Assembly: GCA_022564195.1 (NCBI GenBank)
Contig: JADFLW010000003.1
Location: 12,747 to 76,746, forward strand
Direction of reading: 5' to 3'
DNA: 64,000 nucleotides
Source of the DNA: Patescibacteria group bacterium
Lineage (GTDB): Bacteria; Patescibacteriota; Microgenomatia; UBA1400; Chisholmbacteraceae
The notes below the pieces were generated by a model. That model searched no databases, had not been told where the DNA came from, and saw only the letters and a list, made by a program, of their open reading frames with translations. Every line of letters starts with the position of its first letter. Positions within the stretch are counted from its first letter, which is position 1. The position numbers were made by a program, and so were the translations under genes. This document shows positions 32,475-64,000 of the stretch, one piece after another.

Positions 32475-32529
32475 TAAAGGGGAAGGGAGGTGGTTGGGAA
32501 GCAAAAATAGCAAAGAAGCGTGTGGTCCC

Positions 32530-51437: not shown

Positions 51438-51456
51438 GAGCGTATTATGCCTCTCC

Positions 51457-51485
51457 TTTCGCCCGAAGGCAAGAACTGATATAAT
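51457..51485 (+). promoter_or_regulatory. putative promoter of tRNA-Val (extended -10 TGaTATAAT)
   Basis: 'TGATATAAT' at 51477-51485, 11 nt before the tRNA 5' end. The -35 is weak. Confidence 0.3.
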
Positions 51486-51496
51486 ACGAGATGGTT

Positions 51497-51572
51497 GGGC
51501 TCATAGCTCAATCGGCAGAGTGCTTCGTTCACATCGAAGAGGTTCCAGGTTCGAGTCCTGGTGAGCCCACCA
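51497..51572 (+). tRNA. tRNA-Val: tRNA-Val (anticodon CAC), CCA encoded
   Basis: Manual cloverleaf. Acceptor GGGCTCA/TGAGCCC. D-arm GCTC..GAGT. Anticodon stem CTTCG/CGAAG with loop TTCACAT. T-arm CCAGG-TTCGAGT-CCTGG. Discriminator A followed by CCA. Confidence 0.8.
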
Positions 51573-51574
51573 AT

Positions 51575-51910
51575 ATGAAAATCGTCTCTCTCGAGAAACT
51601 CAAAGATGAACCGCTGACTCACAGTCCTAAGATCAAGAAACGGGTTTTGCTAAAAAAAGGAGAGGTTCCTCATCTGACAAGTTTCTCACAAGCCACTTTC
51701 AAGCCTGGACAAATCGCCAGCGAACACGTCCATGAGGATATGTACGAAGTCTATTTAGTTCAAGGTGGAACGGGCCTGATCAAAGTCGATGGAAAAGTAC
51801 ACCAACTCAAAAAAGGCGACTGCGTGATGACTGAGCCAGGAGAGAACCACGAATTCATCAACACCGGCTCCGAGGACTTAGTCCTCACCTACTTCGGAAT
51901 ACAAAAGTAA
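51575..51910 (+). CDS. cupin-domain protein
   Basis: 111 aa with 'GQIASEHVHEDMYEVYLVQGG...GENHEFIN' double-His cupin motifs. The ORF-track start at 51491 overlaps the tRNA and is rejected. Confidence 0.6.
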   Translation: MKIVSLEKLKDEPLTHSPKIKKRVLLKKGEVPHLTSFSQATFKPGQIASEHVHEDMYEVYLVQGGTGLIKVDGKVHQLKKGDCVMTEPGENHEFINTGSEDLVLTYFGIQK

Positions 51911-52006
51911 AGGAAATTCTTCTTAGGGAAAAAAGAAACCAAATAAGAACGCGTGTATGTAGGGATTGAAGAGAAAGAGAAAGCCAAACCCCAAAAAGGG
52001 GAGGTG

Positions 52007-52037
52007 AGATAGGCTCAGAGCCCACCTCACCTGTTCT
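52007..52037. terminator. bidirectional hairpin terminator between the cupin gene (+) and the island operon (-)
   Basis: 'AGGTGAG-ataggctcagagcccac-CTCACCT' is a 7-bp stem. On the - strand it is followed by CCCCUUUUUGGGG and a U-rich tract. Confidence 0.35.
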
Positions 52038-52199
52038 CTCGCCGCCTCACAAGGCCATTGTAGGCCCAGAGTCCCAGGCCTCCCGCACATAGTGGGAAGA
52101 CGGAGGAAAATGACGAGATTGCTCAACACCTCTCGCACTTCAGTAAGCTCATGGATGCGATCCGACCGATAGCTAAGCGGCCGTGTGATCACGAGCGCG

Positions 52200-53639
52200 T
52201 CAGCTCTCCGCAACAGCTGCTGGGCGAGCAGGAGCCGGACGTCCGAGCCCGAGCTCCTCGGCGTAGTAGGTGATCGGTTTATCCCTCGTCTCCCTGATGA
52301 GGTCCTTTTGGGCGAACACCCACCGATTGGTAGCCTCATTGCCATTCCAGTAGACAGCTTTCACCCGCTTGATTTCGTCATACTGATCACTGGTGGTAAG
52401 GTTTTTAAGCTTCCGGCACTTCGACCTACCCACATTGATCTTCGGATGGTCAGCTAAAGGGTTGTCGGTGAACAACCACAAGAGAGTCGAGAGCGAAAGC
52501 ATCTTCTCCCGAGCAAAGTAGGCTTCGGTGGTCTGCTCCCCTCCTTGCTCATAGAGAACGTCGACGATGAGTGTCAGGCTTCGTTCCTTGCCGTCTCCGT
52601 TCGGCCGCGAGTCCCTGTACTGGCCTTTGATCGCCAGAAGCTCTGTGCCAAAGGCGATTGATTGGACGGAAATGGCTCCCGGAATCCAAGGCTGGCCTTC
52701 GGTTTTGAAGTCGCCTTCCGTTCTGAAGACCGGGCTGCGGGAATGGCCCTGGACGACCTTCGTCCCCGAGGTCTTGATCGCGATCACGCGTTTCCCGGAA
52801 GCCGTCAGCCGCCGAGCGCGCTTGATGAAAAACTCTCCCATCTGCACCCAGGCGAACATCGGGGTGACCCCTTCTGGCGCAGCATAGAGCTCCACTCGAG
52901 GATCTTCCAGATGGCCCATGAACAGCATATCATCGCTGAGGTCCGTGTAGTCCTCTTCCCGCTCTCCGGCGATGCAGGCCATGAGATGAAAGTCTGAGTA
53001 CTGATCCTCCTCCATCATCAACATCGCTGCCCTAAAAATCGCCCGTAGATTCATGGTCTTGCCAACTCCACCTGGACCGGCAATCCATAGACCGTGGCCT
53101 TCGCCGAGCGGCCATCCGCCACGGAAAATGATCCCGAGGACAGGTTCGTACTCTTCGTCCCAGGAAACCCGGCGATCGAAGTAGTCGAGTGGAAGAGGTT
53201 TGTTGGGATAGCGGCCGAAGATCTTGTTCTGATCCTCCTCGTCCGGCTTCGCAACCAAAGTGGGCCAATTTCGGACCACCGCAGCGTCCGTTTCCCCGTT
53301 GACGGAAATGATCTGAGTGATAGGGTCCGGAGGAACCTCTTCCTCGTTGTCGGATCTGCTGCTCGATCTGTCAGGCGGCTCCCGATAGAGGATAAGATCC
53401 CCTTCCCGTAATCCCCACAGCTCCACAGTAGGGGAAGGAATGAATCGGCCCCTTGCAAGGGACTCAGCAAAAATCTCACTCCTGGGGAATTTCGCCAACT
53501 TCTTGGCGTTTGGCGGGATGACCACCGTATCTGGAGTTCCCCATTTGCCGTATACAGGTCTCTGGCTCTGAGGGAGCTCCGAGAGGGGTCGTTGTAGTAC
53601 CAACCCACGCTTCGGTTTATCATCTTGTGTACTCAACAC
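52200..53639 (-). CDS. P-loop NTPase (island gene A), function unknown
   Basis: Walker A 'GPGGVGKT' in mid-protein and a candidate Walker B 'LTLIVDV'. The start is re-set to GTG at 53637-53639, because the conserved hairpin+SD leader motif ('GGAAAGGAG' + 8 nt) sits immediately upstream. The ORF-track ATG at 53699 lies inside that leader. Confidence 0.55.
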   Translation of the reverse strand: MLSTQDDKPKRGLVLQRPLSELPQSQRPVYGKWGTPDTVVIPPNAKKLAKFPRSEIFAESLARGRFIPSPTVELWGLREGDLILYREPPDRSSSRSDNEEEVPPDPITQIISVNGETDAAVVRNWPTLVAKPDEEDQNKIFGRYPNKPLPLDYFDRRVSWDEEYEPVLGIIFRGGWPLGEGHGLWIAGPGGVGKTMNLRAIFRAAMLMMEEDQYSDFHLMACIAGEREEDYTDLSDDMLFMGHLEDPRVELYAAPEGVTPMFAWVQMGEFFIKRARRLTASGKRVIAIKTSGTKVVQGHSRSPVFRTEGDFKTEGQPWIPGAISVQSIAFGTELLAIKGQYRDSRPNGDGKERSLTLIVDVLYEQGGEQTTEAYFAREKMLSLSTLLWLFTDNPLADHPKINVGRSKCRKLKNLTTSDQYDEIKRVKAVYWNGNEATNRWVFAQKDLIRETRDKPITYYAEELGLGRPAPARPAAVAES

Positions 53640-53648
53640 AAGTCTTTC

Positions 53649-53678
53649 TCCTTTCCTAGTGGGCCTCAGGCCCAACCG
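53649..53678 (-). promoter_or_regulatory. conserved leader hairpin + SD motif (copy for gene A)
   Basis: Gene-sense 'CGGUU-GGGCC-UGA-GGCCC-ACUAGGAAAGGAG'. A degenerate second copy lies at 53721-53750. Confidence 0.5.
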
Positions 53679-53996
53679 GTCAGTCCGTTTTCCAGTCATT
53701 GCTGGATTGGGAACAGGCTACCCTCTAGTAGTGGGCCTCTGGTCCAAAAGGAAATCTCTAGAGAGCATTCCGTTCCCAATCCGTACGCGTTCTTATTTGG
53801 TTGTCAAGGAGCTAATGCGAAGCATAAGCTCCGCACCCGCCAATATTTTTCGAGGGAGTATACGGCTGACTAAGCAGTAAGCCGACCATCGATAAAATAT
53901 GGTGGGAAAGTGCTATCCCGCTCAAGCGGGATCCAAATGCCCGCCCCAACAAACGCCAAATGTCTGTTTGCAGGCGTCTTATAAATTGTCAATTTT

Positions 53997-54063
53997 CCTC
54001 TGTTTCGCCCTCCGTAGCTTTAGCGTAGGGGGCTCATCAGTCAGCCTTTGGCTGAAACAGAAA
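53997..54063 (-). ncRNA. hammerhead ribozyme, type III (HHR-1)
   Basis: Gene-sense 'UUUCUGU U|UCAGCC-AAA-GGCUGA CUGAUGA G-CCCCCUACGC-UAAA-GCUACGGAGGG-C GAA ACAGAGG'. Canonical CUGAUGAG...CGAAAC core. Stem III UUUCUGU/ACAGAGG, stem I UCAGCC/GGCUGA, GUU cleavage triplet. Confidence 0.6.
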
Positions 54064-54225
54064 ACAACACAACAAAATCAAACTACAACCCCCTTCACAC
54101 AAACAAACAAACAAACAATTCATCAACCCCGCAAATGGGATTGAGATGTCTGCCGAATTTCGGTGAAGAGAGGGTGAGGGAGGGATCCCAAACTTCGGGA
54201 TCCCATTCCCATGTCAACGTCCCTC

Positions 54226-54576
54226 TTAGGACCGCCACGGTCTTCGGCCTATCCATTCGGCTGTTGGGAGGTCATTCCCGCGCCATCGTCCGTTGGATCG
54301 CAATGGATCCTCATTGACGACCTGACGTAAAAGCCCAATGGAAAGGGCGATCGCGCCGATGATGCCAACGAAAACGGCCAGGAAGCTCGAAACCAAACGC
54401 GAGAGTAGTGGAATGGACTCCACCAAATCTCGCTGAGCCGACGTTAACTCGCCGCCCGACGGAAAGCCAAATGCCGCAAACACATGAAGCGCGAATATGC
54501 CTCCCAGGAAAGGTAGGAGCAAATGAGGCCGATGAAAAGTGCTAAATGGACTCGGAAGTACCAGTCCGAAAACCAT
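54226..54576 (-). CDS. small two-TM membrane protein (pilin/VirB2-like topology)
   Basis: 116 aa. GAGGAG SD 8 nt before the ATG. Hydrophobic N-terminal segment, polar loop, second TM helix. Confidence 0.4.
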   Translation of the reverse strand: MVFGLVLPSPFSTFHRPHLLLPFLGGIFALHVFAAFGFPSGGELTSAQRDLVESIPLLSRLVSSFLAVFVGIIGAIALSIGLLRQVVNEDPLRSNGRWRGNDLPTAEWIGRRPWRS

Positions 54577-54677
54577 TTCGGTACGCTCCTCTCATTCGGC
54601 TCTTTCCTCTTAGCTCCCAAAGGAGCACGTCCGCGATTCTTGCCGTTTCCCGCGATCCAACCCCTCAAAGTGATCAA
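54444..54677 (-). CDS. possible small one-TM ORF (TTG start) overlapping the previous gene in another frame
   Basis: Preceded by a perfect copy of the conserved hairpin+SD motif ('CGGUU-UGGCC-AGA-GGCCA-ACUACGAAGGGAGG'). Overlaps the 54226-54576 gene by 132 nt, so one of the two is probably mis-modelled. Confidence 0.2.
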   Translation of the reverse strand: MITLRGWIAGNGKNRGRAPLGAKRKEPNERSVPKWFSDWYFRVHLALFIGLICSYLSWEAYSRFMCLRHLAFRRAAS

Positions 54678-54680
54678 ATC

Positions 54681-54716
54681 CTTCCTCCCTTCGTAGTTGG
54701 CCTCTGGCCAAACCGG
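54681..54716 (-). promoter_or_regulatory. conserved leader hairpin + SD motif (copy for small ORF)
   Basis: See the leader-motif finding. Confidence 0.45.
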
Positions 54717-54914
54717 ATACTGGAACGCTTCATTGGGCGATTGATCCCGAATGAAGGATAAAACGGATAAGTCCGGGAGGAGCAGGTTCGAGAGAACCCA
54801 ACTCCTCTTTTTTTGGCTAGCGCCGATCAGATCAAGAGCAAGAGCAATGCATACCCCAGCCATTTCAACTGAACGTTTTGGAACATGATCGCTCCTTCCA
54901 TCGAATCGTCGTGA

Positions 54915-56537
54915 CTAAGACGACGAATCGTTCTCATCAACCTCTCGGAGTTGAGACGGTCTGGTTCGACCGCCTGACGATTTCCCGCGACGAAGCCGTA
55001 GCGAGACGCGCCCCCGTGACACCGCGGTATCCCCCGACGCCAAAGCGCTATCGTCGACTTCGCGTAGGGTAGAGGATCTCTTCGCCGGCTGCGCAACCTC
55101 CGGTGGTTGAGCCACATCCGTGACCCGATCCACCACAGTCGGCTGCAGTTCACGATACTTCTCTTGCACGTATCGCGCCTCGATGTCGGCGATGTGCCAT
55201 CCCTGACCGAGCAACCGGGCAAACAGCCTGAGCGTAATACCAGAGCGAAGGCAGAACGCGATCGCGTCGTCCCTCTCAAGACCAGCGTCTTCGATGCGCT
55301 TACGCTTGTAGAAGGTATCGCTGTCCCACAGCGCTTCGAGCTCTGCGCGAAATTTCGCGTTGTCTTGCTTGAGCTCGTCAAGCGAGCGGGTGATCACCGG
55401 ACGGCCCGGGAGTTCATCAGAGAACTCCTCCTGAACCTCCGCAATGGTGACCCCAGGCATAGCCAGTTCTTGCCCGATCTCGAAGCCTTCAAAGCTCCAA
55501 TGATCGGGATCCTCGACTGTGGCCTCGTCAATCGTGGAGGGTTCTGCCTTGATCCGAAGCAGGGCGTCGTAATGAACCATCACTGCCTGGAAAGCCTCCT
55601 CCGCCTGCGCATCGGTCGCGCCTCCAGCAAGGGCCTCCACTCCAGCTGCATTCGCTCGACTCTCAGCTGTGCCTCGAAGCTGTAGCATGAACGCTGCGCG
55701 TCGTCGAATCTTGCCCCGAGCATTCATGAAAGCGACGGCATTCTCCCTGTAGAGAGCCAAGTCGTGTGCCCGTGGCCCGGCCCTGGAGGGGAAGCTCAAG
55801 CTCATGACATCCTCTTTCTGGAATCTGCGCTTGTTCCACCACTTCCTGAGTCGACTCGTCTTGATATCATTATCGAGCAGGTCAGGATCGGTGCGGGCCA
55901 ACACGTCTTCGATCATCGTCGTCGGCGTCGCCGAGATATACATATCCTCCCCGGCCTTGAATAGGCTGGGAATGGTGACACCGCCTTTGCGATGTCGCAT
56001 CTCATCAGTGTAGATGAGATACCTGTCTTGGCGTTGCTGCCAGCGAAGGACGTGGTACGTAAGCGTCGGCGTGAGGAACGCAAGCACAGGCCACGCCCAA
56101 AACGCCATCCCCCATTCGGGGGCCGATGGGTCGATCAACTTGAAATCGGGGACGTCTGGCGAAACCGTGATCGCCGCTACAAATGCGCCCAACGCCAAAT
56201 TGATGAACGACACCGTGACAGCCAGGAGAAACGGCCCAAAGATGCTAAAACCGAAGGCGAAGGGAGACCATTTGAGAAACTCCGGCCAAACGTACGCCTT
56301 CTTGCTCATTTCCAGCACCTTTTCAAGCCTAACTCCTGCCTCGAGTTCGCGCGTCCGCTTCTTCTCACTCACGAGGAAGAAAAAGTCGAAGACACGCTGG
56401 ATCACCTTCTCCCCGAAAGGGAAGATCATCAGTGTTGCAGAGAAGATGATCCAGACGCAAACCACGATGATGGCAAGGCCAACATACGCGGCTGCATCCG
56501 ACGGAAGTACCTCTGAAAGGAACTCTTCGAACGTCAC
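54915..56537 (-). CDS. membrane protein with N-terminal TM bundle and large cytoplasmic domain (island gene B)
   Basis: 540 aa, with 3-4 N-terminal TM helices and no P-loop. GTG start (complement 56535-56537) 8 nt after an AAGGAG SD that lies within the conserved leader motif. Confidence 0.5.
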   Translation of the reverse strand: MTFEEFLSEVLPSDAAAYVGLAIIVVCVWIIFSATLMIFPFGEKVIQRVFDFFFLVSEKKRTRELEAGVRLEKVLEMSKKAYVWPEFLKWSPFAFGFSIFGPFLLAVTVSFINLALGAFVAAITVSPDVPDFKLIDPSAPEWGMAFWAWPVLAFLTPTLTYHVLRWQQRQDRYLIYTDEMRHRKGGVTIPSLFKAGEDMYISATPTTMIEDVLARTDPDLLDNDIKTSRLRKWWNKRRFQKEDVMSLSFPSRAGPRAHDLALYRENAVAFMNARGKIRRRAAFMLQLRGTAESRANAAGVEALAGGATDAQAEEAFQAVMVHYDALLRIKAEPSTIDEATVEDPDHWSFEGFEIGQELAMPGVTIAEVQEEFSDELPGRPVITRSLDELKQDNAKFRAELEALWDSDTFYKRKRIEDAGLERDDAIAFCLRSGITLRLFARLLGQGWHIADIEARYVQEKYRELQPTVVDRVTDVAQPPEVAQPAKRSSTLREVDDSALASGDTAVSRGRVSLRLRRGKSSGGRTRPSQLREVDENDSSS

Positions 56538-56540
56538 ATC

Positions 56541-56576
56541 TCACACTCCTTCGTAGTGGGACTCTGTCCCAACCGA
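56541..56576 (-). promoter_or_regulatory. conserved leader hairpin + SD motif (copy for gene B)
   Basis: Gene-sense 'CGGUU-GGGAC-AGA-GUCCC-ACUACGAAGGAG'. Confidence 0.5.
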
Positions 56577-56624
56577 ATGAACCATACGCGTCGTTGCGCG
56601 TGGGCTCGAAAATGAACCCGACGG

Positions 56625-56683
56625 AGTCGGGGCCACATTAGAGCCCACTGCCTGACACGCAGGCACTCTCTACGAATGATCAA
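56625..56683 (-). repeat. conserved leader block (copy 1 of 2)
   Basis: About 85% identical to 60808-60852: 'TCGGGGCCACAT.AG.GCC.AC.GCC.GACACGCAG..ACTCTCTA'. Confidence 0.5.
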
Positions 56684-56782
56684 TTCCCATCTTTCCTTTC
56701 TATAATCTTGTTGTGTTGTCAAAGTGCGTATCCCTCGCCCGTATACCACGCTCGCATTGAGCAGGTTTGAGTTTGGAATGTA

Positions 56783-56854
56783 TTCTGTTTCGTCCCTCCA
56801 TAGCTTATTAGCGACGGGGGACTCATCAGGTCCGACGTATATCGGACGACAGAA
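56783..56854 (-). ncRNA. hammerhead ribozyme, type III (HHR-2)
   Basis: Gene-sense 'UUCUGU C|GUCCGA-UAUACG-UCGGAC CUGAUGA G-UCCCCCGUCGC-UAAUAA-GCUAUGGAGGGA-C GAA ACAGAA'. Perfect 6-bp stem III, 6-bp stem I, canonical GUC cleavage triplet. Confidence 0.65.
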
Positions 56855-56943
56855 AAACACAACAAGTAGAGCGAGGGGGGGAGAAGCAAGATGGGTGGGT
56901 GGACCGAAGGTCCACCCCTGTAGCGAGCGTTCGCTACCCCATC

Positions 56944-58407
56944 TCACTTCACCGTTGTTGCCGCGCAGGTCCCAAGGACCAACCACGGGTCCATCCAACC
57001 CCGATTCATCTCTCCGTAGAGAACGAAGTCATCGGGATGCTGATCGGAAACCCCGATATGGACATGCGATCCAGCATCGGGATTCTCAGAAGAAGGCTTC
57101 GGATAGACGTCGCCGGTATTGCCGCACTCGCCGATCTTTTGGCCTTTCTTCACCTTCCTTCCCGGGATCATCAAGAACGCCTTCTTGTCAAGGTGGGCGT
57201 ATACAACGTAGATCCCACCATGATCGATCCAGATATGCTTTCCGAACCCGGTGATCCCATCCATGAGCGTACCGGACGAGGGCTTGATGATCTTCCCGTC
57301 CGCGAGAGCCACGATCGGATCGCCTGTCGAACAGTCGAAGTCTCCACCGTAGTGGATGATGATCTTCTTGTGTCCATCCTCGTCTTCGACCTCGCGTTCT
57401 TCGAGCCACTCCCCAGTCACTACGATTGGGAAGCCTTCCGGAAACGGCGCTTCAAGAAACCCCGTCACTTCCGGCAGGAGCCCGAGCGCATCCAGGAGGT
57501 CGATGATCCATTTCCTGAGGAAGTCAAACATTCCCCAGTCAACGGTGTCTTCCGACCCTCCCGTGCCGATGACGCCGACGTCCCCAACGAGAGCATTGAT
57601 CTCTGCAGCCCTATTGACCAGGACTCCGACATAAACAAAGTCGCAGTTCCAACTGCAGTACAACGCATCGATCTTCTCTTTGCGAGACAGATTCGCTCTG
57701 TAGCCGATGGCATGCAACCAGGCGGGGATCGCGTGGAAGGAAACCTTCTCAGACCAGAAGTCACAACTTCGAACTTCGTCGTCGTTGCTCTTCTTCAGAT
57801 ACTTCTGGCAGACGATCTTCGCCGTTGTCGGTAGCCAACCGCCCCGACCCATCTCTCCGGCGCCACAGTGGCTTATGTAGCCCCCGTAGCCCTCGTAGAT
57901 ATAGGCGCGGGCGATCGGATTGCGATCCCGGACATCGTGTTTGCGCCAGTGTCGCATCATCCACCGGGCAGCGGCTAACTCCTTGCGAAGTTGCCGAGGG
58001 TTATGACCCCAGCGCTGCTTGATGCTCGATTGCCAGTCGCAGGAGCCCATGTTGTTCCCACTCGCGGATTCAAACTGCTCGATCGTGAGCAGAATGCCGA
58101 TGTCGATGTTGGCGCCGAAGCGGCGGTTACACCATAAACGCCCGGCCTCGGCATTCGCCACGGCTGAGGGAGAAAATCCCAGGGATGCAACTCGCTCCTG
58201 ATCCTCAGGGGACAGGGCAAAGTCGTATCCGCCGCAGCCGAGTCCCAACCAACGACTAACGATCTCGTTGTAGGAGTTGGGAAAGGTGGCGTGGGCGTAC
58301 CACGCGAACATGATCCCGGTAAAGGAACCGAAAATCAACAGAGGTACGCCCATCAAACTCACCAGCCCGATGAATCTACGCAGGAGTCGTTGTCCTGCAT
58401 TCATCAT
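56944..58407 (-). CDS. membrane-anchored cell-wall hydrolase with C-terminal M23 (LytM) peptidase domain (island gene C)
   Basis: N-terminal TM segment. C-terminal 'HYGGDFDC.TGDPIVALADGKII...HIWIDHGGIYVVYAHL...GECGNTG...GSHVHIGV' matches the M23 HxxxD...HxH pattern. Translationally coupled to gene D, 9 nt downstream of its stop. Confidence 0.7.
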   Translation of the reverse strand: MMNAGQRLLRRFIGLVSLMGVPLLIFGSFTGIMFAWYAHATFPNSYNEIVSRWLGLGCGGYDFALSPEDQERVASLGFSPSAVANAEAGRLWCNRRFGANIDIGILLTIEQFESASGNNMGSCDWQSSIKQRWGHNPRQLRKELAAARWMMRHWRKHDVRDRNPIARAYIYEGYGGYISHCGAGEMGRGGWLPTTAKIVCQKYLKKSNDDEVRSCDFWSEKVSFHAIPAWLHAIGYRANLSRKEKIDALYCSWNCDFVYVGVLVNRAAEINALVGDVGVIGTGGSEDTVDWGMFDFLRKWIIDLLDALGLLPEVTGFLEAPFPEGFPIVVTGEWLEEREVEDEDGHKKIIIHYGGDFDCSTGDPIVALADGKIIKPSSGTLMDGITGFGKHIWIDHGGIYVVYAHLDKKAFLMIPGRKVKKGQKIGECGNTGDVYPKPSSENPDAGSHVHIGVSDQHPDDFVLYGEMNRGWMDPWLVLGTCAATTVK

Positions 58408-58416
58408 GCACCGCCA

Positions 58417-60717
58417 TCACCACTGGCGTCCGGTGACATTCAGGATGCTGTCCGGAATGTCGTTGATCAGGTTGTAGTACACTTCGTCCCGATCCACCGG
58501 ATTCCGCACGATGATGCGGTAATACGGCATCTTCCGGAACCAGAGTTCCAAGGGGAAGGATTCGGCAAACCCCTCGATGAACGCCTTGACCTGATCGACC
58601 GTGTGCGCCGTAGCCACGAACCAGATGCGATCCTTATGGATCCCGTCCAGGGCATACACGCACCAGTCGCGTCCTCGCATGCCGATATCGTGGGGGATCA
58701 TGCCCAGCTCTTCATGCTTAGTGAGCGCCGGCCAGGCGTAGATGTCTTCGATGGTCAGCGAACAGATCGGGGGCGTCGGCCACTCATAGCCGGCATACCC
58801 GGTCTCCCACTCCTCATACTCGGGCGTCACTCCCTCGATATCGTCGGGCGGGACTGCCCAGTTCCTGAAGCGGAGGTTGAACTCCTCCAGATCAGCGAGC
58901 ACGTAGTGGGAGTAGGCGAAACTCTTGATCGAAGGCATGAGAAGCTCTGGCATACCGACGAACTTGCCCGTCTTCCACCATTGCTTTGCCTTGGCTTGAA
59001 CCCGGGCGCGTGCCTGCGCTTCTACCTTGCGCATCAGTTCCATCTGGTCCTCGACGGTGTGCGCATCTGCGATGCTCACCACGTTGATGTCACCACCGTG
59101 GTGCTTGACCCAGTTGATGGCACCCTCTTGCCTGGCAGTCGTCAAGGCAACACGCTTGCCGAAGGGGCCGACCTGGTTGCCGCCGAGGGCAGCGTCCCAA
59201 GTGGTCTTCCCGCGTTCACCTTTGCCAATGAGCAGGAGATGTTTGTAATTCTCCCGATCGATGAAGACCGGATGCCCGGTCTCCTCGTCTTTGCCCCAGT
59301 AGTGGGTACCCTGGATCTCGCCGATCCCGTTGACCGTCGAGACCAGCCCGTGCAGCAGCTCATCAGCACCAGTCGTAACCGTGTGCCGGAACCGAGTCAG
59401 GGGATAGTCCAAGATCGGATCCAGTGGCGGTGCCCCAGGAATCATTTTCCGGAACGCCTTCTGCAGCTGGTCAAACAGCCCCGTGACTCTGTGCCACTCT
59501 CCCAGGTTGCTGAGCCTGAGCTCAACATCGTCGAACTTGGGCATCCGCCCGTTTTCGATCTGGGAGGAGGTGCGGAGGAGCGTCGTGATGTACAGCTCTC
59601 GGGATTGAAGATCACCCTCAAACCACGGCAGCTTGACGCGCTCACACTGAATCCAGATGTCCAGATCCAGCTCCGGGTCAAGTAGATCCTGCAGAAACTC
59701 GTGCGGGAACGGACCCTTCCAGATCCTGTAGGCGCGATCGCCCAAGATGTAGTAGTCATGCCGCCATTTCGGGCGGATCGGGCAAGCAACCTCCAGGGGA
59801 GGCAGTGGTCGTTCAGCCAGCTTGATCGGCCGGCGGTGAATCACCGAGTGCAGGAACGAACCGAACAGCTGATAGGGCAGCACCAAGCCGCCCATCGCCG
59901 CCGAAGTCCCGCGACTACCGATGAACGCACCCGAGAGACCAGTAATGATCAGGTTCCTCTCGTAGAGTTCCTTCCCATCATAGCCCTGTTGGTAGTCACC
60001 CAGGGCAGCGTCTTGGATCTCGTCGATCAGAATCTTATAGGGGCGATTCCCCTGACGCCTGATCTCGTCCAGATGTCTCTTGAAAGGTTCCACGATCATC
60101 GGCGAGTTGAGAAGGAGCATGGTGATGACGTTGCCAAGATGGGAGTCACCCCAATGGTGTAACATCAAGTTGATACCCGCCACCACATGACGTGTGCCGT
60201 CCTCGTCAGGCACGGTATATCCGTGCTGGAGCGGTCGATTGTGAAACACAACCGATCGCCATTTCTTGCGAGTTGCGGTCGGATCGCTGTCAGCCTTCTT
60301 TCGCCAATTGGATGGCCAAAGGCGAGCCAGAGTGGCAAACAGTCCTTTTCGATCCGAAAGCTCGAGCGGAGCGACCATCAGCATATTGCCGTAGCGTGTT
60401 TCTGCGGTCGCGCGAAGCCCCAAGATTTCTTCAGCGGTTCCCTCGTCAACATTGGGATCCCTTTTCTTGCGGGCTGAGATCCTCAGCGGTTCACGCTGAG
60501 GTTTGCTCCCCATTTTCTCTTCCATTACGGAAGGAAGAAGGGGCGCCGGTGTCCTCACTCCCCGAGCGAGCATATGGCCAACCTCTGGCAGTTCCGGCTC
60601 TGGTTGTTCCAGATCCGGTTGTACCGCCTCCGGTTGTTCCACACTGTGGTCAGCCTCTGGCTGTGGCTGTACCACAGTCCCGTCAGGGTGAACCTCTGCC
60701 TGTGCGTCGGTATTCAT
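58417..60717 (-). CDS. large P-loop NTPase (VirB4-like or SF3-helicase-like; island gene D)
   Basis: 766 aa from ATG 60715-60717, 4 nt after an AGGAGG within the conserved leader. Walker A 'LLLIGKGERGKTT' at about residue 500, with candidate Walker B 'NVVSIAD' or 'YVLADLEE'. Acidic Pro/Glu-rich N-terminus. The ORF-track start at 60828 is an upstream extension through the leader. Confidence 0.55.
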   Translation of the reverse strand: MNTDAQAEVHPDGTVVQPQPEADHSVEQPEAVQPDLEQPEPELPEVGHMLARGVRTPAPLLPSVMEEKMGSKPQREPLRISARKKRDPNVDEGTAEEILGLRATAETRYGNMLMVAPLELSDRKGLFATLARLWPSNWRKKADSDPTATRKKWRSVVFHNRPLQHGYTVPDEDGTRHVVAGINLMLHHWGDSHLGNVITMLLLNSPMIVEPFKRHLDEIRRQGNRPYKILIDEIQDAALGDYQQGYDGKELYERNLIITGLSGAFIGSRGTSAAMGGLVLPYQLFGSFLHSVIHRRPIKLAERPLPPLEVACPIRPKWRHDYYILGDRAYRIWKGPFPHEFLQDLLDPELDLDIWIQCERVKLPWFEGDLQSRELYITTLLRTSSQIENGRMPKFDDVELRLSNLGEWHRVTGLFDQLQKAFRKMIPGAPPLDPILDYPLTRFRHTVTTGADELLHGLVSTVNGIGEIQGTHYWGKDEETGHPVFIDRENYKHLLLIGKGERGKTTWDAALGGNQVGPFGKRVALTTARQEGAINWVKHHGGDINVVSIADAHTVEDQMELMRKVEAQARARVQAKAKQWWKTGKFVGMPELLMPSIKSFAYSHYVLADLEEFNLRFRNWAVPPDDIEGVTPEYEEWETGYAGYEWPTPPICSLTIEDIYAWPALTKHEELGMIPHDIGMRGRDWCVYALDGIHKDRIWFVATAHTVDQVKAFIEGFAESFPLELWFRKMPYYRIIVRNPVDRDEVYYNLINDIPDSILNVTGRQW

Positions 60718-60757
60718 ACGACCTCCTAATGGGTAGTCGGCCTCTTGGCCGAACCGA
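60718..60757 (-). promoter_or_regulatory. conserved leader hairpin + SD motif (copy for gene D)
   Basis: Gene-sense 'CGGUU-CGGCC-AAGA-GGCCG-ACUACCCAUUAGGAGG'. Confidence 0.5.
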
Positions 60758-60807
60758 AAGACTTTTCGCGTCATTGCGCGATTGGCCCAAAAATGATCCC
60801 GACAACG

Positions 60808-60852
60808 TCGGGGCCACATCAGGGCCAACCGCCCGACACGCAGACTCTCTAG
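60808..60852 (-). repeat. conserved leader block (copy 2 of 2)
   Basis: See 56625-56683. Confidence 0.5.
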
Positions 60853-61010
60853 GAGATCTCAAAAATCCAATAATTCCTCGCTCTATTCTTGTTGTGTTGT
60901 CAAAGTGCTATCCCGATGAGATGTCGGGATTTCATTGCCCGCATACGCAAACGCTTCTCGTTCACAACGCGGGCCGTAAATAACTCAGGTTGTCAAGTTT
61001 GTCTGTTTCG

Positions 61011-61082
61011 CCCTTCGACTGCCTGTCCTACTGACAGTCCGCTCAGGGGCTCATCAGGTCCGACGTATAGCGGACAACAAAC
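61011..61082 (-). ncRNA. hammerhead ribozyme, type III (HHR-3)
   Basis: Gene-sense 'GUUUGU U|GUCCG-CUAUACGU-CGGAC CUGAUGA G-CCCC...(extended stem II)...GAAGGG-C GAA ACAGAC'. Stem III GUUUGU/ACAGAC with a G-U pair. Stem I covaries with HHR-1. Confidence 0.6.
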
Positions 61083-61242
61083 AAACACAAACAAGAAGAA
61101 GCGACACTCTCTACCAAAGACAAAAAACCAACAAACCAACCCCGCTACTGGGATTGAAAAGGTTCTTTGCTTGAGCAAAAGAGTGAAGGTGGATAGAGAG
61201 GGTTCAAACATCGAACCCCCTCCTATCACCTGTGCATTCCCA

Positions 61243-61626
61243 CTAGCCATCCTTCCCATCTTGGCGTTTCGCCAACGTCGCTCGGTCCTCTGGACCTTGA
61301 CCACGGGTGGTGAAGATCCGTTGAAGGGTAACGTCCCGCTTCAACAGGGTGTCGAACGGCTTGGCCCGTCTGTTGCTTTTCCTCGCCTCAATCAGATGCG
61401 AGTTCGTCTCCCAAAAGAGGTGTAGGAAAAACAAGCTAACATAGGCCATTGCGATAACGGCACTCACCACCGTGATCAACGGTAAGTCGCCTTCGAGGAG
61501 AAGGCTCATCTCGTTGTACACGAGGAGCAAGTCAGAACCGACCAAGATAAGTAGGACGGCCCGTAACCGCATTGGGTGGGAAGTATCCACAAGCCAGTAG
61601 TGAACTGACCTGACTCGCTCATACAT
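61243..61626 (-). CDS. small two-TM membrane protein, translationally coupled to gene E
   Basis: 127 aa. The ATG overlaps the gene E stop (ATGTATGA). GGGAGGT SD upstream. Confidence 0.4.
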   Translation of the reverse strand: MYERVRSVHYWLVDTSHPMRLRAVLLILVGSDLLLVYNEMSLLLEGDLPLITVVSAVIAMAYVSLFFLHLFWETNSHLIEARKSNRRAKPFDTLLKRDVTLQRIFTTRGQGPEDRATLAKRQDGKDG

Positions 61627-63397
61627 CGCTCACCTCCCGGAGATAGCGCGATGGCCCTTGCCGCTTTCGAGGCTGGGAACGTTGAGCCCGTACTGGACGA
61701 GCCACGTTTTCCTCCATAGGGACATCTGCGGATTGGCGCAGCTGCCGTGTACGCCGACGCTCGTCCACCGATCTCGTCACATGGACTATCGCGCCAGTTG
61801 CCCACTTTGCAGGCCTAAGCTGCGGATTGATTTTGGCAGCGATGTCAGCAGCCGTATCTTGCACTTCAAAGTAGCGAAGCGGAAGCCTTCTCATGCGTTC
61901 CGCAAACCCAGGAGATTCCTCTCGGAAGCCCTCAGGCCGAGCAGACGGATCCCGTAGGATACCAGCCTGTCCGTCGACGGAATCGTCAGCCATCCAAGCA
62001 CTGCCGGGCTGAGAGACAGATCCGCTCACGCGTCCGACTCCCGGTTGACGGAGCGCCCCAGGCTGATCGCCAGTGCGTACCCTTCCGGGAGCTCGAGTAT
62101 CGCTGATACCACCAGCACTTCCTTGAGATGCGGAAGCAGTCGGCCTTCGAAGACGACTCCCGAACTGGAGGGAAACCTTGGTCTCCTCTTCCTTCCGGGA
62201 GAGCGATCTGGATCCAGCTCGCCTGCCGCGATATCGACCGGTCGGACCGGTCGCACGGGAACCTGGGGTTCCCCTCACCGGCCCTCGACGACTTCCTCCT
62301 TTCGCATCGCGCAAGCCACCCAACCTGTCGCCTGGCTTTCCCTTCGTACCAAGAGGTGGGTCCTTGGAAGGACTGCCTTTGTCCGAGGGAGCAGGAGGCA
62401 CCATCGGCCCGGGTGGCGGAAGCCGCGCTTGGCCAGAGCGTTCGTCGCGGAGTCGCGCTTGGCTCGGTCCACCAGTAGGGATTGGCCCTGTAGTAGCGGT
62501 GGCCGTTGCGGTTGTGGTCCGCCGATAGCGTCTCACGTCAACGCCTCGCAGACCAGCGACGCCAGCCGCGTCGAAGCTCCGCAGCGTGCTGCGTCGCCTT
62601 CTGCCTTCTTGCGCTTGCACTGCCTGTCCCTCTGCTTCCTTGAAGGAGGTGACTGGCGCAAACACCAGTGCGATGACCGGCAGTATGACGTAGCAGATGA
62701 GCTGCGTGAGTCCGAGCACCCAGGCATAGAGCCCGATGTTGGCGGTCTGTGTCGAGATTGGTCCTACTTCCAGCGTCGGAGTCCCGCTGACCAGAAACGT
62801 GATCATGCTGAACCCCCAACTGAAAAGCAGCCAGCCGACAACTTGCGCTACCCAAACATTCATGGGTCTCGTGTTACCCACGATCACGGTGGCGAAAATC
62901 GCAACCACGTACGTCAGCAGCATAATGGCCTGAACGTACCGGTGGATCAACGCAACATTGAGGATAACCCCCACCAGCATTGGCGCATTCACGATGTCGG
63001 CGATTGAAGGGCTCGTCAAGCCAAACGCTTCTGCGATCGAAAAGAGGCTGATATCGTCAGGTTGAAGTCGCGACCCGACCAGGGTGAGCGCCGGGATGAC
63101 AGCCCCCACAAACCCTGCCCCGAAGGTGAGGATCTGCCATTTGATGACACCTCCTGTGTCCTGTCTACTTGCCGCCTGCAGCGCCTTGTACGTCGCCAAC
63201 GGCACGAGAATGAGCAGGATGCGAGTCAACCTCCGATATTTCTCAAGATCCGGTTTCAGAAACCAGAGCCCGAGCCACTTCTCGTTGATCGCTCTCAGGA
63301 TATCTCCGATAGGACCGAGAGGTTCCTCACTGCTGCACGCGGCGAGAATCAACCCACCAAGCATCAGCAGCAGGAGAGACAGCGCCTTGCGTTTCAT
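61619..63397 (-). CDS. polytopic lipoprotein with long disordered Arg/Gly/Pro-rich C-terminal region (VirB6/TrbL-like topology; island gene E)
   Basis: Lipobox 'LILAAC'. About 6 TM helices in the N-terminal half. Low-complexity 'RGxRG/PGxxG' tail. 'TTTATATATTGP' Thr-rich run. Confidence 0.55.
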   Translation of the reverse strand: MKRKALSLLLLMLGGLILAACSSEEPLGPIGDILRAINEKWLGLWFLKPDLEKYRRLTRILLILVPLATYKALQAASRQDTGGVIKWQILTFGAGFVGAVIPALTLVGSRLQPDDISLFSIAEAFGLTSPSIADIVNAPMLVGVILNVALIHRYVQAIMLLTYVVAIFATVIVGNTRPMNVWVAQVVGWLLFSWGFSMITFLVSGTPTLEVGPISTQTANIGLYAWVLGLTQLICYVILPVIALVFAPVTSFKEAEGQAVQAQEGRRRRSTLRSFDAAGVAGLRGVDVRRYRRTTTATATATTGPIPTGGPSQARLRDERSGQARLPPPGPMVPPAPSDKGSPSKDPPLGTKGKPGDRLGGLRDAKGGSRRGPVRGTPGSRATGPTGRYRGRRAGSRSLSRKEEETKVSLQFGSRLRRPTASASQGSAGGISDTRAPGRVRTGDQPGALRQPGVGRVSGSVSQPGSAWMADDSVDGQAGILRDPSARPEGFREESPGFAERMRRLPLRYFEVQDTAADIAAKINPQLRPAKWATGAIVHVTRSVDERRRTRQLRQSADVPMEENVARPVRAQRSQPRKRQGPSRYLREVSDV

Positions 63398-63401
63398 GGC
63401 G

Positions 63402-63956
63402 CTACCGTGGAGCTGCCGGTTCCGCGAACTCCTGAGTGAAATGGTCGATGATGTTCACTCCTCGAGGGGGCAGGAAGCTGTCGAAACCGATCAGTTCACC
63501 CGCGATCCCGATGACGATGATGATCCCGACCATGATCCCGATCCAGGTGCCTATGGGCGAAGGTGCGCCTGCTGCCGTCGGTCTCCTCACGTTTAACGGC
63601 CCGAAGAAGACCGCATAGAGAATAACCAACACACCGGCGACGATGACGTACCAGTGAATTCTCAACAGAAATCTCTCTTCGTCTTCACCTTCCTGCAGCA
63701 AGACGCCCATGAGCAAAATGCCCGTGAACGCCGTTGCCTGCAGACGCGTTCCAGAAATGGGGCCATAGTTACGCTCCCCGATTCTGGCGAGATCGATCCT
63801 CGCTGTCAGCCGCTGAAGCGGTTTCAGCAGAAGGATCGCGATCGTGTAGAGCAAAGCCAACACGATCAACGGGTTGGGCTCAAGCAGAAACTGCACAAGC
63901 CCCGAAAATGGGGTGGAAAGCATCGCCACTCCATGAGCAAAAAGTGTGTCCAACAT
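63402..63956 (-). CDS. small polytopic membrane protein (island gene F)
   Basis: 184 aa with 4 hydrophobic segments. AGGAG SD 8 nt upstream, preceded by a covarying leader hairpin. Confidence 0.45.
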   Translation of the reverse strand: MLDTLFAHGVAMLSTPFSGLVQFLLEPNPLIVLALLYTIAILLLKPLQRLTARIDLARIGERNYGPISGTRLQATAFTGILLMGVLLQEGEDEERFLLRIHWYVIVAGVLVILYAVFFGPLNVRRPTAAGAPSPIGTWIGIMVGIIIVIGIAGELIGFDSFLPPRGVNIIDHFTQEFAEPAAPR

Positions 63957-63961
63957 AGTGG

Positions 63962-63995
63962 ACTCTCCTATCTAGGGGTGATTGATTCACCCTCC
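63962..63995 (-). promoter_or_regulatory. conserved leader hairpin + SD motif (copy for gene F)
   Basis: Gene-sense 'CGGAG-GGUGA-AUCAA-UCACC-CCUAGAUAGGAGAG'. Confidence 0.4.
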
Positions 63996-64000
63996 GGTCA

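Follow-up and report, generated by a model that had tools for sequence, protein, structure and literature searches.

In the MAG of a tiny Patescibacteria bacterium, the translational units of a mobile element that resembles a secretion system each begin with a folded mRNA leader, previously uncatalogued; the leader's structure exists on the sense RNA, where it is kept by compensatory change. Its last helix, a GC-rich hairpin here called P4, is tied in position to the Shine-Dalgarno sequence (SD) and not to the preceding helix, P3. The initial annotation of this 64,000-nt stretch of DNA (the window) had reported a hairpin repeated six times just upstream of the SD at island gene heads; the repetition is real, with five intact copies and one degenerate, but the hairpin proved not to be self-contained: it is the last helix of a four-helix leader with hammerhead ribozymes adjoining.

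The island is a tRNA-adjacent region of higher GC in the Patescibacteria genome, and all its genes lie on the minus strand (coordinates are given on the plus strand). It is a divergent type IV secretion-like gene set comprising a VirB4/TrwK-fold ATPase (gene D), an M23 hydrolase, polytopic membrane proteins and a second RecA-fold ATPase. Function could be assigned to a minority of the element proteins, and no RNA-binding or RNase domain was detected in the element. Leaders occur only after intergenic gaps, while leaderless genes overlap or abut the gene before them; the intergenic modules are clear paralogous duplicates.

Architecture of the leader

The leader spans about 110-130 nt and runs from P1/P2 through P3, an A-rich linker of 10-37 nt and P4 to a strong SD and the start codon, with a P4-to-SD spacer of 0-12 nt across leaders. 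P1/P2 is an irregular, G.U-rich hairpin of about 20 bp with conserved sides UGAUGUGG and AUCAUUUUG, P2 being followed by AUCAUUUUUG; P3 is a 4-5 bp stem capped by a hexaloop, CRANGA, that is invariant at four of its six positions (C, A, G, A).

The five intact P4 copies stand 2-10 nt upstream of the SD of five island genes and share the layout CGG(UU)-hairpin-(A)CUA-2..10 nt-GGAG-5..9 nt-start (Table 1). This largely agrees with the layout and the hairpins first described, except that the F copy has neither the UU nor the A flank, that the stems are of 6 bp and not 5, a U-A pair closing four of them, and that the F loop has 5 nt. The degenerate copy, A2, is followed by ACUACUAGAGGG and lies within the P1 stem of leader A; the sequence of that stem recurs before the A homologue in the related element L004. 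Upstream of P4, leader F runs past the end of the window; this part is visible in L002.

Table 1 Leader helices, hammerheads and neighbouring elements in the window
Feature	Position	Strand	Details
P4, copy A, UGGGCC-UGA-GGCCCA	53660-53674	minus	dG -9.5 kcal/mol; then SD AAAGGAG, GTG 53639
P3, leader A, UCCAG-CAAUGA-CUGGA	53691-53706	minus	
P1-like stem, leader A, GGAUUGGGAAC / GUUCCCAAUCC	53704-53782	minus	encloses A2 copy
A2, degenerate P4-like, UUGGACC-AGA-GGCCCA	53732-53747	minus	dG -2.5 kcal/mol; one A.C mismatch
CA box, degenerate copy	53790-53811		
Type III hammerhead upstream of leader A	53996-54064	minus	RF00008 37.3 bits, E = 4e-5, below gathering score 48.5
Terminator-like hairpin, U-rich tail	54144-54123		after upstream gene
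P4, small ORF, UUGGCC-AGA-GGCCAA	54697-54711	minus	dG -7.2 kcal/mol; then SD GGGAGG, TTG 54677
Weak P3-like hairpin, small-ORF leader, CGC-CCAAUGAA-GCG	54726-54739	minus	
P4, copy B, UGGGAC-AGA-GUCCCA	56557-56571	minus	dG -7.4 kcal/mol; then SD GAAGGAG, GTG 56537
P1/P2 + P3 before B	56583-56653	minus	model R1 71.3 bits, E = 5e-14
P3, leader B	56586-56601	minus	
P1/P2, leader B	56600-56648	minus	
CA box, second copy	56706-56727		
Type III hammerhead upstream of leader B	56783-56854	minus	
P4, copy D (VirB4-like ATPase), UCGGCC-AAGA-GGCCGA	60737-60752	minus	dG -10.2 kcal/mol; then SD AGGAGG, ATG 60717
P1/P2 + P3 before D	60763-60834	minus	model R1 82.1 bits, E = 2e-16
P3, leader D	60766-60781	minus	
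P1/P2, leader D	60778-60832	minus	
CA box, GCACUUUGACAACACAACAAGA, between hammerhead and leader D	60887-60908	minus	
Type III hammerhead upstream of leader D	61000-61069	minus	long stem II insert; RF00008 20.5 bits, E = 2.2
Terminator-like hairpin, U-rich tail	61157-61136		after upstream gene
P4, copy F, GGGUGA-AUCAA-UCACCC	63976-63992	minus	dG -7.9 kcal/mol; then SD AGGAG, ATG 63956

The gene starts that the motif had been taken to redefine held up. Gene D starts 37 codons inside the ORF-track start, which makes it equal to the 766-aa database protein P0001; B starts at its GTG (540 aa); and A starts at an in-frame GTG, the ATG 53699 of the longer A ORF being a spurious ORF-track start that falls inside the P3 loop CAAUGA. 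The start of the small ORF is uncertain; read from its TTG, the ORF is 77 aa long and shares sequence, in a different frame, with a gene for a 116-aa membrane protein that has its own SD (ATG 54576).

Three type III hammerheads lie in the same intergenic regions as leaders, about 250-330 nt before P4 with a CA box and P1-P3 in between; the small-ORF leader has no hammerhead upstream. The CA box is promoter-like and contains TTGACA, with no canonical -10 element. The hammerhead upstream of the VirB4/TrwK-fold ATPase gene is syntenically conserved in distant Patescibacteria clusters: a descriptor places a hammerhead at the same position in L001, L004, L010 and L011, and inspection by eye does so in L006 and L008.

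Compensatory change on the sense strand

Across P1-P3, for which an RNAalifold consensus was also computed, pairing holds in 93% of cells and double changes occur at 18 of the 23 pairs, with a covariation score of 0.65 against 0.24 in shuffles (reached in 0/500); P3, aligned by its loop, is 98.7% paired. In 24 of 28 leaders the sense strand folds more stably than its antisense counterpart (p = 2e-5), and the covariance model R1 gives the sense strand 82 bits where the antisense gets 34, and 71 bits where it gets 20. Matches to the P1-P3 model are confined to the island, with none in 51 kb of host sequence, and a search of the leader against Rfam matched no family and no riboswitch.

Covariation in P4 itself, the check proposed along with the motif, was assessed on 12 copies with 3-nt loops: each of the five pairs has changes in both strands of the stem, the count of these two-sided cells being 17 (4.6 in shuffles), and the score of 0.83 compares with 0.21 in shuffles (0/500) and at most 0.12 in slid controls. 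P4 copies of 5-7 bp range in dG from -4.5 to -10.2 kcal/mol, and some stems contain G.U pairs (L1B, L4_16198, L10_7530). Beyond the outer GGG/CCC pairs and A-rich loops of 3-7 nt, which share no conserved loop sequence, P4 has little conserved sequence, and its inner pairs covary. The outer pairs and the orientation of P4 could be kept because a factor recognises them, and not for stability alone; they could also simply stem from common descent of the modules.

A composite descriptor, a hexaloop hairpin followed by a GC hairpin, recovers the island copies, with one unrelated match in the host part of the window, lacking an SD, and one further match on the opposite strand inside gene D. Such a hairpin is present at 8 of 12 SD-bearing gene heads in the island against 2 of 22 in the host (Fisher p = 9e-4). 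When leaders were anchored independently by model R1 (n=23), 14 carried a hairpin of at least 5 bp between leader and SD, where shuffles predict 2.2 (Poisson p = 8e-8). With P3 at least 24 nt from the SD, only 2 of 16 leaders lack such a hairpin, both having one of 4 bp. Some leaders have no P4, and in these the SD is adjoined either by P3 or by no hairpin at all.

Relatives whose neighbouring ATPase is only 23-46% identical have a hairpin at the same gene heads with different stems: GGGUGA, UGGGGG, GGGACU, GGGAC, GGGGU, UGGGGU and GGGCG at F-type heads, UCGGCC, AUGGGUU, GGAACGU and GCCC at D-type heads, and UGGGAC and GGUGAC at B-type heads. Orthologous heads thus retain pairing with new sequence. 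The flanks that the initial annotation described as conserved, in contrast, are lineage-specific: CGGUU and ACUA are kept only in the window element and its closest relative, L001, and are absent in L004, L007, L008, L009 and L010.

Alternative readings of the leader

The preference for an RNA structural element over a DNA operator is borne out by pairing that is kept while sequence changes, among paralogous copies and at distant orthologous heads alike, and is further backed by G.U pairs in the stems and by the sense-over-antisense folding of the surrounding leader. A palindromic operator or cruciform acting as DNA, an antisense terminator or a chance by-product of duplicated intergenic DNA is extremely improbable. 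The hairpins are indeed perfect 5-6 bp palindromes in duplex DNA, and the modules are duplicates, but half-sites differ between copies within one element, so that one dimeric repressor could not read them all; the opposite strand would have A.C mismatches in place of the G.U pairs of P4 and of the many in P1/P2, and its folding energy and model score are also far weaker. No U-tract follows the hairpin on either strand, and compensatory changes across such diverged lineages exclude chance. An action on transcription is very unlikely: the leader would be an antitermination or pausing signal (a put/EAR-like RNA or nut-like boxB), with P4 as pause hairpin, for read-through of the terminator-like hairpins, and the two-hairpin architecture downstream of the promoter-like CA box, together with the sequence after P2, would suit it. 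The position of P4, however, is set relative to the SD (0-12 nt) and not to the CA box or P3, there is no boxA/boxB-like consensus (boxB carries a GNRA-like pentaloop on a stem of 5 bp, whereas the loops of P4 vary and have 3-7 nt), and the CA box lacks a canonical -10 element.

Regulation in trans or by the leader itself has more to weigh. P4, alone or with P3, might bind a factor from element or host (a translational repressor or activator, or a hairpin-specific, Cas6/Csy4-like endoribonuclease cutting the stem base) that would bring all units under coordinate post-transcriptional control, which we consider unlikely. The same module heads every unit, the outer pairs, fixed orientation and A-rich ANA triloops are partly conserved, the P3 loop is largely invariant, ACUA persists within the closest pair of elements, and most element proteins are without known function; yet P4 varies freely in inner pairs, loop length and loop sequence, its flanks are not conserved across the family, some leaders lack it, and the domain search of the element found no candidate. 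P3 is the more plausible site for a sequence-specific factor or translational operator, because its loop is invariant at those four positions and P4 is little conserved. Decidedly unlikely is a riboregulator, riboswitch-like or a protein or temperature switch, in which P4 would sit in the expression platform and alternative pairings would free or hide the SD. Candidate pairings are P1 base against P3 and an upstream anti-SD against the SD. In several copies, wD, L1D and L1F among them, the P1 base shares nucleotides with the P3 5' strand; in the minimum free energy folds of leaders D and B the SD region is paired to a CU-rich stretch lying upstream (predicted probability of an unpaired SD, 0.00 for leader D); L004 has two mutually exclusive hairpins before the SD (7117-7150); and the leader is built of several helices, with internal loops conserved in sequence. 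Against this, the anti-SD partner is placed inconsistently and is absent in L001 D, SD accessibility differs between copies (0.00 to 0.85) without any pattern, no conserved junction resembles a ligand pocket, Rfam gave no riboswitch, and a metabolite sensor repeated at least five times inside one secretion operon would be odd.

A candidate cap for processed mRNA units

The reading that we favour, tentatively and at somewhat under even chances, is that P4 is a sequence-independent structural cap that would protect and insulate the ribosome-binding site (RBS) of processed mRNA units. Breaking or deleting P4 in silico gave no computational support for its keeping the SD open (mean probability unpaired 0.37 in the wild type, 0.32 with P4 broken and 0.41 with P4 deleted; no consistent change), and P4 is not indispensable, since several leaders do without it.

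Phage T7 and SP82-type phages carry RNase III processing hairpins between genes. In the island it is P1/P2, not P4, that resembles them: this irregular duplex, about 20 bp long with internal loops conserved in sequence, is repeated between genes of the mobile element's polycistronic transcript. Cleavage at P1/P2 is putative. Clustered hammerheads flanking genes in prophages and mobile elements process polycistronic RNA, and the role proposed for them is to divide long transcripts so that gene-length mRNAs result (Perreault et al. 2011, PMC3088659). That system likewise has several coding-strand hammerheads in intergenic regions, within an integrated element whose gene array lies on one strand, but it is described with no conserved downstream leader or SD-proximal hairpin, and in the island the hammerhead before the VirB4-like gene is syntenically conserved. 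The synthetic insulator RiboJ joins the sTRSV hammerhead to a 23-nt hairpin before the RBS, and the hairpin that remains after cleavage is proposed to make the mRNA more stable and leave the RBS exposed (PMC6206723). The order hammerhead, hairpin, RBS is the same, but RiboJ is engineered and its hairpin adjoins the ribozyme, whereas the island has the CA box and P1-P3 in between and one leader without a hammerhead. According to the references in PMC3997798, 5' stem-loops near the RBS stabilise the papA and ompA mRNAs of E. coli and the aprE mRNA of B. subtilis, that of papA operating after intercistronic processing of the polycistronic papBA RNA, and in these accounts they act structurally, largely independent of sequence. 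They lie at or within a few nt of a mapped 5' end; P4 recurs at every unit of one element and is embedded in a larger conserved leader of four helices.

On the cap reading, hammerhead self-cleavage would cut a long same-strand transcript into units, and host RNases might make further cuts, at the P1/P2 duplex or within the A-rich linker. Because the hammerheads lie so far upstream, ribozyme cleavage by itself would not leave P4 at the 5' end, so that the reading has to assume a second cut or trimming by an exonuclease. Adjoining the RBS as a largely sequence-independent cap, P4 would then be the natural counterpart of the papA, ompA and aprE stabilisers and of the RiboJ hairpin, preventing 5'-to-3' decay or RNase entry from reaching the SD, and would set a defined single-stranded SD context for each unit of the element.

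An island of leader-bearing gene blocks

Past a tRNA gene (see table for coordinates), the window closes with a 12.4-kb island whose GC content is 55-59%, against about 48% in the remaining window; all long ORFs of the island lie on the minus strand. At the heads of genes A, the small ORF, B, D and F we found a perfect GC-rich hairpin, here called P4, 2-10 nt 5' of a GGAG-type Shine-Dalgarno sequence (SD); upstream of A there is also a sixth copy (A2), which is mismatched. The initial annotation had given these hairpins a uniform layout of 5-bp stems and 3-4-nt loops, which holds for the window copies save that four stems are 6 bp long, with a U-A closing pair, and that the F copy has a 5-nt loop and no UU/A flanks. 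The gene starts that it had redrawn from the motif agree with other evidence: those of D, where the 766-aa protein P0001 begins, and of B coincide with independent gene calls, and A has an in-frame GTG after its SD, the ORF-track ATG falling inside a hairpin loop.

Only genes with an intergenic gap before them have leaders; internal genes overlap their predecessor or adjoin it directly. Two leader copies have no credible gene directly downstream: that of the small ORF, which overlaps out of frame a gene for a 116-aa membrane protein with an SD of its own, and wG, an extra copy outside the window, followed by a 3-codon ORF and about 125 nt before the next gene. Both may represent leader peptides or modules in decay. 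A glmS ribozyme upstream of glmS, in the window's host part, is ordinary in itself but notable for a Patescibacteria genome.

Sequence searches against Pfam, PHROGs, NCBIfam and the PDB left almost no island protein annotated, and no Pfam, PHROGs or NCBIfam model matched D. Foldseek comparison of an AlphaFold model for D (pLDDT 76.5) gave a match to full-length TrwK/VirB4 from the R388 type IV secretion system (T4SS; E = 1e-12). With this predicted fold and the lack of a profile match, we class the island as a divergent element of T4SS-like character, whose distant relatives are chromosomal Patescibacteria clusters. Canonical Patescibacteria T4SSs have recognisable VirB4 profiles (PMC12102498); D, with no Pfam match, was not assigned to them and appears distinct.

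The ATPase is very rare. A word-index search of 5.8 billion proteins matched D itself and one 46%-identical protein, and a word-indexed search with a 12-sequence D profile returned the same two proteins only; protein-pattern scans of genome, viral and metagenome contigs and tblastn against plasmids and phages gave no match for D. A full HMMER search among 1.84 billion protein clusters placed 56 representatives in the family, one of them annotated candidate division WWE3 (the window's host proteins are annotated 'Patescibacteria group bacterium'), and this search with contig look-ups supplied the relatives. One contig, L002, is the same element as the window (0 mismatches over a 9,732-nt overlap) and so is not independent evidence; L001 is 46% identical in D, and L004 (identical to L005) and L006-L011 are distant relatives with 22-31% identity. 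All share one gene order: a gene for a small protein, then one for a polytopic protein (about 500 aa) and one for a ~120-aa protein; after a gap come the ATPase and an M23 peptidase, and after another gap a ~500-aa protein, with further genes beyond. Beyond the window end, a second direct repeat of about 150 nt is accompanied by inverted copies (GCCGCTACATCCC / GGGATGTAGCGGC) around an AT-rich stretch, a feature also present in L001 and L004 that might be an origin or recombination site of the element.

A larger leader surrounds the hairpin

Alignment revealed three further conserved helices upstream of the gene heads, so that P4 is part of a larger leader. P1 is a long-range stem (UUGGCCC/GGGCCAA before D, GUGGGCUC/GAGCCCAC before B, UUGGUCA/UGACCAA in L001) that encloses a conserved UGAUGUGG, the P2 hairpin (CCCGAC...GUCGGG) and AUCAUUUUG; P3 is a 4-5-bp stem with the loop CAAYGA or CGACGA, four of whose six positions are invariant, and it is followed by an A-rich linker and then P4. 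In the P1/P2 alignment, RNAalifold predicted 21 pairs, 15 of them with compensatory changes. A covariance model of P1-P3 (R1; 23 pairs) scored the leaders of D and B at 82 and 71 bits, and recovered 17 more sense-strand copies in the relatives; antisense matches were always far weaker (34 bits for D and 20 for B, for example). Its search of the 51 kb of host sequence returned nothing at E <= 1, an E-value that is rough owing to a shortened calibration. R1 detected neither the small-ORF leader nor leader A, a variant that has the degenerate A2 copy within its P1 stem.

Among 16 distinct top R1 matches, in an alignment fitted to that model, 93% of P1-P3 cells were paired, double changes occurred at 18 of the 23 pairs and the covariation score was 0.65 against 0.24 (0/500), with slid controls at about 0.11. 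When P3 stems were anchored on the loop sequence only, 98.7% of cells paired. The sense RNA was more stable than the antisense in 24 of 28 leader stretches (122 nt upstream of the start; mean difference -7.6 kcal/mol, Wilcoxon p = 2e-5), consistent with many G.U pairs. Inspection by eye led us to reject a pseudoknot pairing the P3 loop with the 3' side of P2, the partner register differing between CAAUGA and CAACGA copies, and no consistent anti-SD was found in the leaders.

Recurrence and covariation of P4

A composite structural descriptor recovered the island copies; the 51 kb of host DNA gave a single match, with no SD, and gene D another on the opposite strand. Such a hairpin accompanies 8 of 12 SD-bearing gene heads in the island versus 2 of 22 in the host (Fisher p = 9e-4). 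Some P4 copies were picked by a hairpin finder; the least biased figure is anchored on leaders located independently by the covariance model, which excludes P4: in 14 of 23, a hairpin of 5 bp or more separates the R1 match from the SD, against 2.2 expected from dinucleotide shuffles (p about 8e-8).

Variable loop and linker lengths prevented a MAFFT alignment of P4 from distant copies, so we analysed it in equal-length blocks and relative to the model-anchored leaders. Orthologous gene heads in the homologues retain an SD-adjacent hairpin with different stems: the 5' strands are GGGUGA (window), UGGGGG (L001), GGGACU (L004), GGGAC (L008), GGGGU (L009), UGGGGU (L007) and GGGCG (L010) at F-type heads, UCGGCC (window), AUGGGUU (L001), GGAACGU (L008) and GCCC (L010) at D-type heads, and UGGGAC (window) and GGUGAC (L001) at B-type heads. 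The proposed covariation was upheld in 12 copies with 3-nt loops, where both sides change at all five pairs; these copies were pre-selected as hairpins, so the informative measure is how varied the pair types are rather than what percentage is paired. Their covariation score was 0.83 against 0.21 ± 0.06 in shuffles (0/500) and at most 0.12 in slid controls, a significance that, like every shuffle-based one here, is inflated because the copies are related, represent about eight independent lineages and are in many cases within-element paralogues.

The resulting consensus is (U)GGGNN-[A-rich loop of 3-7 nt]-N'N'CCC(A), with largely conserved GGG/CCC pairs on the outside and free variation in the two inner pairs. 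The flanks had also been described as conserved, which proved too broad: CGGUU and ACUA are common to the window element and L001 only. P4 keeps its position relative to the SD (0-12 nt), the distance from P3 varying between 10 and 37 nt; its sequence is mostly free and its stability moderate to high. Leaders that end within about 20 nt of the SD have no P4, and in two such cases P3 abuts the SD.

Type III hammerheads upstream of the leaders

The long intergenic regions that precede A, B and D contain one coding-strand type III hammerhead each, defined by the core CUGANGA ... GAAA, closed stems I and II, an open stem III and a non-G cleavage site, and MFE folds gave the three-way junction in all three. 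All lie below the RF00008 gathering score of 48.5 bits because long stem II inserts lower their scores, and the copy before B is absent from the RF00008 matches (cmscan, E <= 10). By sequence and structure these neighbouring ribozymes are type III hammerheads, and self-cleavage is predicted. The descriptor places a hammerhead between the gene for the ~120-aa protein and the VirB4-like gene in L001, L004, L010 and L011, and we recognised one by eye at the same position in L006 and L008; the small-ORF leader has none. Clustered hammerheads that flank genes in integrated elements are known, and cut polycistronic RNA in vitro (PMC3088659). In L007 and L009 the hammerhead slot holds an AU-rich, apparently structured stretch (UCUAUGUAACUAGGUAACUGG...UUAGUUACUUAGAGAG) with no Rfam match, which could be another processing element.

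Between hammerhead and leader lies a conserved sequence, the CA box (GCACUUURACAA-CACAACAAGAA). A GU-rich tract directly 5' of each hammerhead is complementary to the CA box GCACUUUGACAACACAACAAGA about 170 nt downstream; the two pair in MFE folds, and in L001 there is a matching change in tract and box (UUGUUGUGG with CCACAACAA). The box was rejected as a sigma-70 promoter: TTGACA is present, and a -10 element at workable spacing is absent. L001 encodes a protein that carries the C-terminal domain of RNA polymerase alpha (Pfam RNA_pol_A_CTD), a possible candidate for a transcription factor acting at the CA-box or promoter-like sites. The sole match of a CA-box DNA pattern among viral contigs, L003, is an unrelated AT-rich phage whose likeness is due to chance; there TAAAAACACAACAAA(A)ACTAAAAAC recurs just before successive genes, probably as a promoter or intergenic signal of the phage.

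Features of the island, host part and relatives. Window coordinates are those of the plus strand.
Feature	Sequence	Position	Strand	Remarks
glmS ribozyme	window	32506-32716	+	Rfam 55.8 bits
tRNA gene	window	51497-51569		
Start of A	window	53639		GTG; ORF-track ATG at 53699
Hammerhead before A	window	53996-54064	-	descriptor; RF00008 37.3 bits (E = 4e-5) for 53997-54063; MFE fold
116-aa membrane-protein gene	window	54226-54576	-	
Small ORF	window	54444-54677	-	TTG 54677; 77 aa
Start of B	window	56537		GTG
CA box and GU tract before B	window	56706-56727 and 56860-56880	-	
Hammerhead before B	window	56783-56854	-	descriptor; MFE fold
Gene D	window	58417-60717	-	ATG 60717
CA box and GU tract before D	window	60887-60908 and 61070-61100	-	
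Hammerhead before D	window	61000-61069	-	RF00008 20.5 bits; MFE fold
Hammerhead	L001	9712-9768		descriptor
Hammerhead	L004	9644-9725		descriptor
Hammerhead	L010	9770-9835		descriptor
Hammerhead	L011	9790-9853		descriptor
AU-rich stretch	L007	~2990-3060		hammerhead slot
AU-rich stretch	L009	~5150-5230		hammerhead slot
Leader copy wG	L002	2924-3050		
Direct repeat	L002	2440-2590 and 5470-5620		
Inverted copies	L002	2568-2585 and 2885-2902		
Repeat/inverted-copy feature	L001	about 4650 and 6650		
Repeat/inverted-copy feature	L004	about 13800		
RNA_pol_A_CTD protein	L001	5111-5842		
Hairpin pair before SD	L004	7117-7150		mutually exclusive
Repeat before genes	L003	331-353 and ~690-715		

Comparison with known elements

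Searches with cmscan against Rfam 15 covered the window at the gathering threshold, positions 51400-64000 at E <= 10, L001, L002, L004, L007 and L008 at E <= 0.1, and L006, L007, L009 and L010 at E <= 1. They matched tRNA, glmS and weak Hammerhead_3 only; no family, including Drum, twister, pistol, hatchet and the riboswitches, matched the leader or its hairpin. P4 was rejected as an intrinsic terminator, having no U-tract (ACUA or A-rich sequence follows in the sense direction, ACCG... in the antisense), and a terminator scan listed no P4. Nor is it an SD-occluding operator or RNA thermometer of the ROSE/fourU kind, as the SD lies outside the stem, 0-12 nt past P4, in all copies.

P4 would work most like a 5' stem-loop mRNA stabiliser or insulator, a putative likeness that rests on its predicted stability (-4.5 to -10.2 kcal/mol in copies of 5-7 bp) and its 0-12-nt distance from the SD; that class is defined by a position at the mature 5' end or no more than a few nucleotides from it. 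As closest precedents we see the 5' stem-loops of papA, ompA and aprE mRNAs (listed in PMC3997798) and the hairpin in the synthetic RiboJ insulator (PMC6206723). In RiboJ the hairpin directly follows the ribozyme and is 5'-terminal after self-cleavage, whereas P4 is about 250-330 nt from the hammerhead; with this gap, and with a small-ORF leader that has no hammerhead, we did not class the arrangement as a RiboJ-like ribozyme-hairpin-RBS unit.

Discussion

We tentatively favour a plausible reading, short of probable, in which processed units have their ribosome-binding site capped structurally by P4. Upstream ribozymes would cut the transcript into units, and P4 would block 5'-to-3' decay or the entry of RNases and give the SD a fixed context. 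We favour such a cap because the element is a structure of the sense RNA, is tied to the SD and mostly free in sequence, belongs to leaders that follow gaps, and has ribozymes upstream. The hammerheads lie 250-330 nt away, so that another cut or trimming would be needed, with the P1/P2 duplex, which looks RNase III-like, or the A-rich linker as candidate sites. Disrupting P4 in silico shifted SD accessibility in no consistent direction, and we set aside a role of P4 in holding the SD unpaired. Also counting against a cap are the conserved GGG/CCC pairs, which could instead mark the binding site of a trans-acting factor; that such a factor binds P4 we consider unlikely. It is quite unlikely that P4 is the expression platform of a switching leader. 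At one orthologous head in L004, mutually exclusive hairpins (UCCCAU/AUGGGG and GGGACU/AGUCCC) precede the SD and may form a local switch.

That the leader is a transcriptional antitermination or pausing signal strikes us as very unlikely. The boxB consensus of lambda nut sites is a 5-bp stem with a GNRA-like pentaloop, and a nut site also has a conserved boxA; we found no boxA-like conserved linear element next to P4 or P3, and rejected P4 as a boxB, its loops being variable (3-7 nt) and that of P3 a hexamer (CRANGA). A DNA-level feature or chance is extremely improbable. Stems that differ within one element (GGGCC, UGGCC, GGGAC, CGGCC and GGGUGA) led us to reject a palindromic DNA operator, and the original preference for an RNA element is sustained by the lack of conserved half-sites and likewise by the G.U pairs and the strand asymmetry.

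Neither hairpins repeated upstream of ribosome-binding sites nor clustered hammerheads are new as kinds of feature. Three things appear new: a conserved leader of four helices, the repetition of this leader at every unit of a very rare Patescibacteria VirB4-like cluster, and the syntenic hammerhead. None of them is described in the literature we searched or in Rfam. It is conceivable, if doubtful, that the leader (P1/P2, P3 and P4) and the syntenic hammerhead form a new dedicated RNA cassette of an unrecognised, very rare VirB4-like secretion or conjugation apparatus in Patescibacteria, read by a specific factor or self-processing, that coordinates all units post-transcriptionally.

Patescibacteria (CPR) are uncultured or barely cultured episymbionts, and to our knowledge almost nothing has been established about how they control gene expression; we likewise know of few roles for bacterial hammerheads. 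The locus offers a covariation-supported structured mRNA leader, absent from Rfam, at each block of a divergent T4SS-like cluster and physically linked to conserved hammerheads, and the leader model could mark further members of this very rare gene cluster. If a ribozyme cut does combine with a hairpin-capped ribosome-binding site, the arrangement would be a natural version of the design reached independently in RiboJ and would give bacterial hammerheads a concrete function; if the cassette reading is true, every unit of the apparatus would be under coordinated post-transcriptional control.
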